In this document: positions 5,103 to 53,408 of the stretch, piece by piece | How the letters are laid out: every line of letters begins with the position of its first letter | Numbering within the stretch: position 1 is the stretch's first letter | Source of the DNA: a virus | Direction: 5' to 3' (one strand) | DNA: 64,000 nucleotides | Virus record (IMG/VR): IMGVR_UViG_3300029319_000002 | Span: 64,001-128,000 of that record | The notes under the pieces: model-generated | What the model saw: only the letters and a program-made list of their open reading frames with translations | What the model was told of the DNA's origin: nothing | Databases searched by the model: none | Made by a program: the position numbers and the translations under genes

Positions 5103-5260
5103 CAATGTTCAAGACCATCTGTAAAACTTGCACTCTTATTCTCATTGCCTCTCTTCTCTGGAATAGCAATGATGCCCGAACTTTCACTGCTGACGTTCTC
5201 ACTGATGCAGCAGAGATTGTCCGACCCGAATCTGAAGCATCTCTGAAGATTATCTTCTGA
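5103..5260 (+). CDS. Small hypothetical protein with a hydrophobic N-terminal segment (MFKTICKTCTLILIASLLW...)
   Basis: Part of ORF-track ORF 5000..5260; start approximate (ATG near 5106). Confidence 0.55.
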
Positions 5261-51416: not shown

Positions 51417-52796
51417 ATGCAAGATTCACACATGCTAACGGAAAAGTGGGCTCCCCTTCTTGATTATCAAGGTGCGGAAGCTATCACCGATCCCCACAGA
51501 CGTGCAGTTACTGCACAACTACTAGAGAACCAAGAAAAGTTCCAACAAGAAAGCCGTGCTTTCCAGGAAGGTGGTTCAATGCTTTCTGAAGCACCCACCA
51601 ATGTAACTGGTTCTTCAATCGATAATTTCGATCCCGTCTTGATCTCCTTGATCAGACGTTCTATGCCCAACCTCATTGCATATGATGTTGCCGGTGTCCA
51701 ACCTATGAATGGACCTACTGGACTCATCTTTGCGATGCGTGCTCGTTTCAACAGCCAGACTGGTTCTGAAGCACTATTCAACGAAGCAGATTCCGCATTC
51801 TCTGCTCAGGACTCCGGATTTGATGTTACTTCTGGTGACTATACCGGTGGTACTGATGGTGATGCTTCTGTTGGTTTCGGTACAACTGCTCAAACTGGTT
51901 CAAACCCCTCCGTTCTAGGTGCTGCTGGTGGATCTGGCACTTCCTACAACGTTGGTCAGGGTATGAGCACAGCAGATGCTGAAGCTCTAGGAGATACTGG
52001 AGACCTCTTCAACGAGATGGCCTTCAGCATCGAGAAGGTTACTGTAACTGCTAAGTCCAGAGCCCTCAAAGCTGAGTACTCCTTAGAACTAGCACAAGAC
52101 CTCAAGGCAATCCACGGTCTAAGTGCTGAGTCTGAGCTCTCCAACATCCTCTCCTCTGAGATTCTTTCTGAAATCAACAGAGAAGTCGTTCGTACAATCT
52201 ACAAGGTTGCACGTCCTGGTGCTCAGGCAAATGTCTCCACTGCTGGTCAGTTTGACCTAGACATCGACAGCAACGGTCGTTGGAGTGTTGAGAAGTTTAA
52301 GGGTCTACTCTTCCAAATCGAAAGAGATGCAAACGCAATCGCACAAGAGACTCGTAGAGGAAAGGGCAATATCATCATCACTTCTGCTGATGTTGCTTCT
52401 GCTCTAACCATGGCTGGTGTTCTCGACTACACCCCTGCCCTCAATGCTAACCTACAGGTTGATGCTACTGGCAACCTATTTGCTGGTACAATCAACGGTA
52501 AGTACAAGGTATACATCGATCCCTTCGGTTCTGCCGCAGGTGATGCTAACCAGTACTACGTTGTTGGTTACAAGGGTACTAGCCCCTATGATGCTGGTCT
52601 CTTCTATTGCCCCTACGTTCCCCTCCAGATGGTTCGTGCCGTTGGAGAGAACTCCTTCCAGCCCAAGATTGGCTTCAAGACTCGTTACGGTATGGTTGCT
52701 AACCCCTTCGCAGAAGGAACAACAGCTGCCCTCGGTGCTATCAAGGCTAACACCAACCGTTACTACAGACGTGCAATCGTCAAGAACCTCATGTGA
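51417..52796 (+). CDS. g23: Major capsid protein gp23
   Basis: FDPVLISLIRRSMPNL, GVQPM.GPTGLIFAMR, KSRALKAEYSLELAQDLKAIHG and FQPKIGFKTRYG. Confidence 0.98.
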   Translation: MQDSHMLTEKWAPLLDYQGAEAITDPHRRAVTAQLLENQEKFQQESRAFQEGGSMLSEAPTNVTGSSIDNFDPVLISLIRRSMPNLIAYDVAGVQPMNGPTGLIFAMRARFNSQTGSEALFNEADSAFSAQDSGFDVTSGDYTGGTDGDASVGFGTTAQTGSNPSVLGAAGGSGTSYNVGQGMSTADAEALGDTGDLFNEMAFSIEKVTVTAKSRALKAEYSLELAQDLKAIHGLSAESELSNILSSEILSEINREVVRTIYKVARPGAQANVSTAGQFDLDIDSNGRWSVEKFKGLLFQIERDANAIAQETRRGKGNIIITSADVASALTMAGVLDYTPALNANLQVDATGNLFAGTINGKYKVYIDPFGSAAGDANQYYVVGYKGTSPYDAGLFYCPYVPLQMVRAVGENSFQPKIGFKTRYGMVANPFAEGTTAALGAIKANTNRYYRRAIVKNLM

Positions 52797-52881
52797 TTTA
52801 AGTGGTTGCTGCGGAAGCGGTTGCCCCACATGTCCTTACAGACCTCCCTCACGGGGGGTCTTTTTTTATGCAAATAAATAA
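52771..52881 (+). CDS. Candidate Cys-rich peptide / alternative gp23 C-terminus (…SCDLSGCCGSGCPTCPYRPPSRGVFFYANK)
   Basis: The +1 frame across the g23 stop encodes CCGSGCPTCPY; the nearest possible start is GTG 52771. Confidence 0.5.
   Translation: MQSSRTSCDLSGCCGSGCPTCPYRPPSRGVFFYANK
52841..52867 (+). terminator. Rho-independent terminator after g23
   Basis: GACCTCCC-TCAC-GGGGGGTC followed by T7. Confidence 0.9.
52874..52880 (+). promoter_or_regulatory. Late promoter ATAAATA for g3
   Basis: Consensus just after the terminator. Confidence 0.6.
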
Positions 52882-52901
52882 TACGATGAATACTGTCTGA
52901 A

Positions 52902-53408
52902 ATGCCCACAATAACCGACAATAAAAATTTATTATCACCTATTGGGTTTAAGTTTATCTTGGCACATTCACCAAATGTTGACTTTTTCTCAAACTCTGTT
53001 AATATACCAACAATAGATCTAGGAACTGCAATTCAACCAACATATCTAAAAGATATTGAAGTTCCTGGTGACAAGTTGCAATATAGTGATTTGGTAATTC
53101 AATTTTTGGTAGATGAAGATATGAAAAATTATCTTGAAATCTACAAGTGGTTAATGGCATTAGGATACCCTGGTACTATCAATCAAACATACGACAAATA
53201 TAATAGAACTTATGGAGATGCAACTCTTCAAATTTTAAGTAGTAATTTCCAAGTTAACGGTCAAATAAATTTTGAAGATTTGTTTCCAGTTTCTTTATCC
53301 GGATTACAATTTGATGCAACTTCAGGTGATGTTCAATACTTGACAGCAGAGGCAGTTTTCAAGTATAAGATATTTACAGTAACTGACAACAAGAAAGAAA
53401 CTTATTGA
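52902..53408 (+). CDS. g3: Tail completion / tube terminator gp3
   Basis: NLLSPIGFKF, VPGDKLQYSDL.I.FLVDEDM.NY and FEDLFPVSLSGLQFDAT. Confidence 0.9.
   Translation: MPTITDNKNLLSPIGFKFILAHSPNVDFFSNSVNIPTIDLGTAIQPTYLKDIEVPGDKLQYSDLVIQFLVDEDMKNYLEIYKWLMALGYPGTINQTYDKYNRTYGDATLQILSSNFQVNGQINFEDLFPVSLSGLQFDATSGDVQYLTAEAVFKYKIFTVTDNKKETY

Follow-up and report, generated by a model that had tools for sequence, protein, structure and literature searches.

The viral DNA analysed here (the window, a stretch of 64,000 nucleotides from a 196-kb phage genome) carries four closely spaced cysteine codons in the +1 frame directly after the end of g23, the major capsid gene, and the question is whether these belong to a gene and, if so, how that gene is read. 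The initial annotation described this Cys4 motif and offered four explanations: a +1 frameshift that extends the capsid protein, a small peptide started at a GTG, a peptide whose translation modulates the overlapped terminator, and a decayed standalone gene. Its description proved accurate when coordinates and frame were re-read. The Cys-rich stretch is a real, strongly conserved and unannotated mini-gene of about 25-36 codons that occurs in hundreds of marine cyanophages, and its most likely product is a separate small protein rather than a frameshifted tail of the capsid protein.

The features of the locus are collected in Table 1. The capsid gene ends in AAC CTC ATG TGA, with ATG TGA at 52791-52796, and its last 26 bases are shared with the mini-gene. 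Read from 52792, the +1 frame gives CDLSGCCGSGCPTCPYRPPSRGVFFYANK (C-D-L-S-G-C-C-G-S-G-C-P-T-C-P-Y-R-P-P-S-R-G-V-F-F-Y-A-N-K), with the motif stretch ...GCCGSGCPTCPYRPP... running through the terminator and a TAA stop at 52879-52881. As annotated initially, this frame is open back to a GTG at 52417, its nearest start is the GTG at 52771 and no ATG lies near the motif. The latter GTG, 11 codons upstream of the core, is formed by the g23 codons CGT GCA, is not conserved in the closest relatives and is preceded by no Shine-Dalgarno-like sequence in the window. The core itself begins 10 bases past the T of the g23 TGA, and positions 52804-52845 (GCCGSGCPTCPYRP) match every invariant column of alignment A3. 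The window micro-ORF can be aligned to 35 relatives of 20-40 amino acids bearing start codons, and it shows the marks of the family: the core, an in-frame start that opens an ORF of about 20-40 codons, and a position at the stop of the preceding gene. The phage genome holds a single copy of the element. The tail and stop of the micro-ORF fall within an A/T-rich stretch (52868-52901, CAAATAAATAATA) that separates the terminator from the next gene, whose ATG is at 52902. The stretch resembles the CTAAATA/ATAAATA boxes seen after the g23 terminators of most relatives and may on that account serve this gene as a late promoter.

Table 1. Coordinates of the features at the 3' end of g23 in the window.
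Feature	Position	Strand	Size	Description
g23 major capsid gene	51417..52796	+	459 codons	From the ORF list; 3' end similar to annotated Synechococcus phage major capsid genes
Candidate micro-ORF	52771..52881	+	36 codons	GTG start, TAA stop; spans the g23 stop and the terminator
Predicted stem CATGTG / CACATG	52790..52832	+		g23 stop region pairs with the Thr-Cys codons of the motif; from the fold of 52785-52885 (-31.9 kcal/mol, z = -2.7)
Conserved core G-C-C-G-S-G-C-P-T-C-P-Y-R-P-P	52804..52848	+	15 codons	
Intrinsic terminator of the g23 transcript	52840..52868	+		Stem 52840-52861, 9 pairs, loop TCAC, then T-run; from terminator scan and fold

The length of the open +1 frame is not in itself informative. 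In g23 genes with the motif the +1 frame at the 3' end is open for a median of 120 codons and in those without it for 100, that is, for about 100 codons either way, and a true overlapping gene at 52417-52881 is rejected on these grounds. The long open frame is thus a by-product of g23 codon usage and is not special to the motif. A stop-free +1 frame across the last 100-150 or so codons of g23 is seen in most cyanomyoviruses, and public databases hold spurious "proteins" of 127-158 amino acids called from it (P0002-P0005, P0015-P0017).

The evidence that the motif is a coding sequence comes from its conservation. A degenerate pattern (GGNTGYTGYGGNNNNGGNTGYCCNACNTGYCC) matched at least 120 viral contigs, while the same pattern reversed, as a control, matched none, which bears out the earlier judgement that a chance occurrence is unlikely. 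Across 145 distinct viral copies G1, C2, C3, G4, C7, P8 and C10 are invariant, and 143-144 of the 145 retain F/Y12, R/K13 and P14; codons 12-14 had been left free in the search patterns. The Gly, Cys and Pro codons of these copies have zero diversity at positions 1 and 2 and a diversity of 0.3-0.66 at position 3, with 0.66 at the Pro of codon 14. The free residue is Ala, encoded by any of four GCN codons, or Ser, encoded by AGC, AGT, TCA or TCG and hence by both the AGY and the TCN codon families. Circularity was avoided by scans that fixed one half of the motif and left the other half unconstrained. All Cys codons of the free half were intact in 61 of 62 g23-linked matches, the exception being a one-base insertion, and in the reverse scan the free half was intact in 49 of 50 usable matches; new variants obtained in this way were C-P-D-C, C-P-N-C, one change of Pro to Ser and one of Gly to Ala. 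Compared with the window, the phages ACG-2014a, ACG-2014g, S-MbCM100 and S-RIM12 show only TGC/TGT and GGA/GGG exchanges, Ser to Ala and Tyr to Phe. The initial annotation had proposed to look for synonymous substitutions among relatives, and this is the pattern seen: third codon positions vary and residues are kept. Comparison of the copies thereby shows the motif stretch to be under purifying selection at the protein level in the +1 frame, and selection of this strength leads us to discard the suggestion of a decayed standalone gene. One g23-linked copy (L265, about 5156-5230) has an extra C in a CCCC run that breaks the Cys frame past G-C-P, and this is either a sequencing error or a recent inactivation.

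The distribution of the element beyond g23 is revealing of how it may be translated. The core of the wider family is G-C-C-G-[A/S]-G-C-P-[T/D/N]-C-P-[F/Y]-R-P; 67 distinct ATG-started ORFs of 20-40 amino acids were collected, among them forms of 24 amino acids, and in an alignment of 36 ATG-started ORFs G-C-C-G-x-G-C-P-x-C-P is invariant. A scan for the C-P-D-C form recovered 71 distinct copies away from g23, behind at least five different upstream genes. In 68 of the 71 the upstream stop is placed four bases ahead of the first Gly codon (xxT AGA/AAA GGN), and an in-frame ATG, GTG or TTG is found 3-9 codons upstream in nearly all (68/71 distinct copies). One C-P-D-C copy is ATGA-coupled and lies in a different frame relative to its upstream gene, and several stand alone, with no upstream gene in that frame. 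ACG-2014g has two copies, one linked to g23 and one behind a 73-aa gene. At the second copy the terminator is further downstream and F-R-P-P is still kept; thus, R-P-P is conserved as peptide and not as terminator stem. The element also occurs in a host genome, a Synechococcus metagenome-assembled genome (MAG), in which a stand-alone ATG ORF encodes the same core (MNRTKRGCCGAGCPDCPFRP...) in GC-rich synonymous codons. Matches in Streptomyces and other GC-rich genomes were rejected as alternative-frame noise. Among Synechococcus phage records in GenBank, 97 contain the C-P-D-C form and 26 the g23-linked form, and none has an annotated CDS over either.

Within the 5' end of a gene that encodes a secreted protein of some 224 amino acids is a third set of copies, and here the same 50 or so bases, read in another frame, specify the signal peptide's hydrophobic core. 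These copies mostly have an ATG or TTG 9-16 codons upstream and a stop 3-6 codons past R-P, and the overlap of signal-peptide core and Cys micro-ORF is an apparent case of dual coding. Slippage by -1 on an A-run of the secreted-protein gene was considered as the source of the Cys frame and rejected; the A-run is not conserved. The secreted protein (L022:66-740 and about 50 other loci) has a signal peptide, a ...GCMLLREC... segment and an HEGWHAAQDC motif, and no significant Pfam match was found for it. A homologue is present in the genome of the window phage (G000 167317-167988), outside the window; the signal peptides of the homologues, this one included, are generally quite different. The dual-coding subset is patchy in distribution relative to mature-domain similarity.

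Several loci call for separate comment. Just behind the g23 terminator of L042 (1861-2600; also L048 and L109) is an ORF of 163 amino acids resembling GIY-YIG homing endonucleases. On either side of this insert is a diverged copy of the Cys element plus terminator; the first copy follows a TAA and reads C-I-T-C. These three loci are not counted as independent contexts away from g23, being duplications beside an inserted GIY-YIG endonuclease gene. An 11.7-kb contig (L490, PCAW01000011.1) from a MAG labelled "Methanobacteriota archaeon" has a g23 end of the cyanophage type followed by the Cys element, and is most likely a phage contig misbinned into the archaeal MAG.

Copies linked to g23 are the ones that bear on the window most directly. 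Spacers of 4, 7, 10 or 16 bases between the T of the stop and the first Gly codon always place the motif in the +1 frame, as does the spacer of one copy that follows a TAA stop. In one g23 lineage a spacer of 17 bases shifts the motif into the +2 frame, in register with the GTG of ATGTGA. The initial annotation had asked whether the frame is fixed relative to g23, and this holds for most relatives but not for the +2 lineage. Conservation of frame is expected from a frameshift and equally from a start codon upstream of the stop, and therefore does not by itself discriminate between the two. An ATG, GTG or TTG occurs within 12 codons in 59 of 82 distinct g23-linked copies; the remaining copies, approximately 28%, include those of ACG-2014a/g and of two close relatives of the window phage (L093 and L112), whose peptide differs from that of the window at two residues. 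Among cultured carriers, S-MbCM100 has no start nearby and an S-RIM12 isolate has a TTG. An ATG, the other feature on which the initial annotation had placed weight, is found in part: one g23 lineage has an in-frame ATG in the spacer, two codons ahead of the core, and many copies away from g23 have one, but the 28% have no canonical start within 12 codons. Starts in the +1 frame within the last ten g23 codons are present in 39 of 55 motif-bearing ends, compared with 27 of 76 motif-less ends (Fisher p = 9e-5, kinship ignored). The stop codon is TGA in all 58 motif-bearing g23 genes of a scan unanchored on the stop, as against 44 TGA and 30 TAA in motif-less genes.

Of the four explanations, the small peptide with its own start is best supported, since the motif recurs in other contexts with its own ATG (among them the 67 distinct ATG-started versions), GTG or TTG, as a stand-alone ORF in the host, and in a g23 lineage that reads it in the +2 frame. 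Independent initiation is the simple answer for the family, often from a start overlapping the 3' end of the upstream gene. In the window, we judge it probable, with room for doubt, that 52771-52881 holds a member of a widespread Cys4 micro-protein family of T4-like cyanophages and that this member is translated from a separate small ORF. The ORF would start within the last g23 codons in the +1 frame, in the window phage at GTG 52771, and its translation would probably be coupled to the heavy translation of g23. The resulting peptide of about 30-36 residues would have a conserved part ending at R-P-P, where the g23 terminator begins, and its four invariant Cys (C-C-x3-C-x2-C) may serve as ligands for a metal ion or an iron-sulfur cluster.

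The principal rival to independent initiation is +1 recoding at the g23 stop, in which ATG TGA T is read as ATG-GAT and a minor fraction of gp23 acquires a Cys4 tail, giving a metal-binding or cross-linking isoform. The constant +1 frame across four spacer lengths and behind the TAA stop would suit such a mechanism, but an upstream start explains it equally well, and one g23 lineage departs from it. A conserved shift-prone P-site codon, expected of a programmed +1 frameshift, is absent: tRNA-Met cannot re-pair on UGU, and the last codon before the stop varies by context (ATG, TTC, GAA, CTC, GCA). Neither the fixed extension frame nor the lack of an independent start that such a frameshift implies is found across the family, given the +2 lineage, the spacer ATG and the 59 of 82 copies with a start; start codons are in fact enriched where the motif is present, and the recoding route is closed to the ATGA-coupled, stand-alone and host copies. 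Two large protein searches returned no g23-Cys fusion. A fusion with the product of another upstream gene is known from a metagenome protein of 84 amino acids (P0018), where the Cys peptide (...HF-MIKNRGCCGAGCYDCPFRPPPKR) continues the reading frame of the small protein found ahead of the C-P-D-C copy in ACG-2014g-like phages; this may be either a natural fusion or an assembly indel. A suppressor or frameshift tRNA was also considered and rejected, as the genome encodes seven ordinary tRNAs and no unusual one. Translational bypass from the ATG to a downstream ATG fares no better; a landing codon exists in one lineage only, and the hop in the window would skip the Cys motif. Thus, a frameshifted gp23 is not needed to account for the element and no shift-prone site is common to its contexts, but the start-less g23-linked copies are compatible with it. 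Together with the TGA bias and the P0018 fusion, these copies are the reason why recoding is retained as an unlikely explanation rather than dropped. Slightly more doubtful again is the proposal confined to the start-less g23-linked copies, about a quarter of the total, that recoding at UGA places the Cys4 peptide on a small fraction of gp23; were it true, one mini-module would act in some settings as a free peptide and in others as a metal-binding or cross-linking tail on the capsid.

Two further readings place the function in the nucleic acid or in the act of translation. Under the first, which we consider highly improbable, what is conserved is RNA or DNA without a coding function (a piece of a bipartite 3' hairpin/terminator module, or the scar of a recombination event), and the Cys residues are read from it by accident. 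Its appeal lies in the motif-less relatives (L126-L205), in which the stop codon pairs with a downstream sequence, ATGTGA with TCACAT and ATGTAA with TTACAT, and the two covary (27/4 versus 2/11, p = 1e-5). In an unbiased set of 80 g23 3' regions a small hairpin is followed by a terminator with a variable stem, and the Cys motif occurs in 3 of the 80; in motif-bearing phages the motif sits where the loop and 3' arm of the first hairpin would be. The stop-region hairpin of motif-less cyanophages might affect stability of the mRNA 3' end or termination efficiency. Inner stems of 7-9 bp are possible in some motif subtypes, and about 50 bases are shared with the signal-peptide coding region, there in a different frame. 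Against this, the codon-position statistics have already largely refuted a non-coding reading: differences between copies recur at every third base and are silent in only one of the frames, and Ser changes codon family. The host copy encodes the same peptide with different bases, predicted folds differ by subtype, and RNAalifold on 55 distinct g23-linked copies gave a weak fold of -4 kcal/mol with no compensatory pairs, so that a conserved RNA structure over the motif is rejected. The initial annotation had held that an RNA element would keep its nucleotides and not its Cys codons or frame; the reverse was found, as the CP[D/N]C variants lose the stop-region pairing and retain every Cys. Under the second reading, the peptide has its effect in cis: a ribosome translating the terminator's 5' arm, perhaps slowed at Cys or Pro-Pro codons, would lower termination and tune read-through into g3-uvsY-uvsW. 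The terminator, annotated at 52841-52867, was recovered at essentially the same place by the scan. Its 5' arm codes for the R-P-P of the window peptide, always as AGR CCN CCN in motif-bearing phages, and terminator stems at the same site in motif-less relatives are quite different. All g23-linked ORFs pass the terminator and T-run before reaching a stop of variable position, and transcripts that end at the terminator would thus have no stop codon for the ORF, which counts against the independently started peptide as well; the peptide may come from read-through transcripts alone or be freed by ribosome rescue, or its translation may lower termination. By analogy with known attenuation mechanisms, a ribosome on the R-P-P codons would block the hairpin. 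The peptide is nevertheless conserved where it overlaps no terminator (within a coding region, several codons short of a terminator, and in a host genome), its Gly and Pro are conserved as much as its Cys, for which a codon-sensing leader peptide has no need, and neither the fold of 52785-52885 nor the alignment fold contains an alternative antiterminator pairing, let alone a covarying one. Terminator control, as put forward in the initial annotation, cannot be the general role of the family, since in many copies the terminator lies beyond the end of the ORF or is absent, and for the g23-linked copies we hold it to be improbable.

Returning to the independently started micro-protein, the Gly and Pro residues that flank C-C-x3-C-x2-C and the basic tail of many copies suggest, from composition and spacing, a peptide that binds metal or an iron-sulfur cluster, or one that is redox-active through C-P-x-C. 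Known families offer limited guidance. The initial annotation took the motif as a signature of DUF5522 and Oxidored-like proteins, a reading that did not survive profile comparison. DUF5522 (Pfam PF17653) is the best Pfam match at 11.7-16.3 bits against a cut-off of 25, over positions 31/34-45 of 48, and the window copy scores 12.9-13.1 bits, below the gathering threshold of 25, over profile positions 34-45 only; this is a weak resemblance of motif, not membership. Oxidored-like (PF09791) gave no match at E <= 10, where HMMER filters drop most matches above about 0.1. A weak match was obtained to the FeoB-associated Cys-rich membrane protein (PF12669; E 0.06-0.08, 14 bits against a cut-off of 27). 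A family profile searched against 1.84 billion proteins (E <= 0.001) returned 15 matches, all of them copies of the element or spurious frame calls over it; NCBIfam, PHROGs, sequences of solved structures and the ESM Atlas yielded nothing useful for the micro-ORF family, and literature searches turned up no description of it.

Small Cys-rich proteins are a known kind, and this Cys4 family is absent from Pfam, NCBIfam and PHROGs and unannotated in the more than 120 Synechococcus phage records in GenBank that carry it. The element is among the most conserved short coding elements of T4-like cyanophages and lies behind their most highly expressed late gene, while copies elsewhere overlap other genes. 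If the peptide binds iron, zinc or copper, or is redox-active through its CPxC, it would represent a new auxiliary function carried by abundant ocean viruses into iron-limited picocyanobacteria. More generally, real genes that overlap stop codons and terminators are overlooked by gene callers.

Comparison with known systems places the window element most closely beside the Cys4 mini-gene of another cyanophage, with a core of …GCCGAGCPDCPF… as against GCCGSGCPTCPY in the window and an identical closest Pfam entry. Both lie across or just behind the stop of a preceding, often highly expressed, gene; the window copy differs in being of the CPTC subtype behind g23, in its longer spacer, in its GTG rather than ATG, and in an ORF that continues through the terminator. 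With DUF5522 the element shares the C-terminal motif C-C-G-x-G-C-x-x-C-P-[Y/F], but the first 30 positions of that profile are absent from the micro-ORF. PF12669 and the very small bacterial metal-binding peptides are similarly short and have a Gly/Cys-rich cluster at the end, whereas the micro-ORF is without a transmembrane segment and its Cys spacing is different. Capsid proteins extended by programmed frameshifting occur in phage T7 (10B, -1) and Listeria phage PSA (Cps, +1). In these, as in the window, the stop of the major capsid gene is crossed by an alternative open frame and an RNA hairpin is nearby; in contrast to them, the window element has no slippery or shift-prone site, and its family exists apart from capsid genes, with its own starts and, in one g23 lineage, in another frame.
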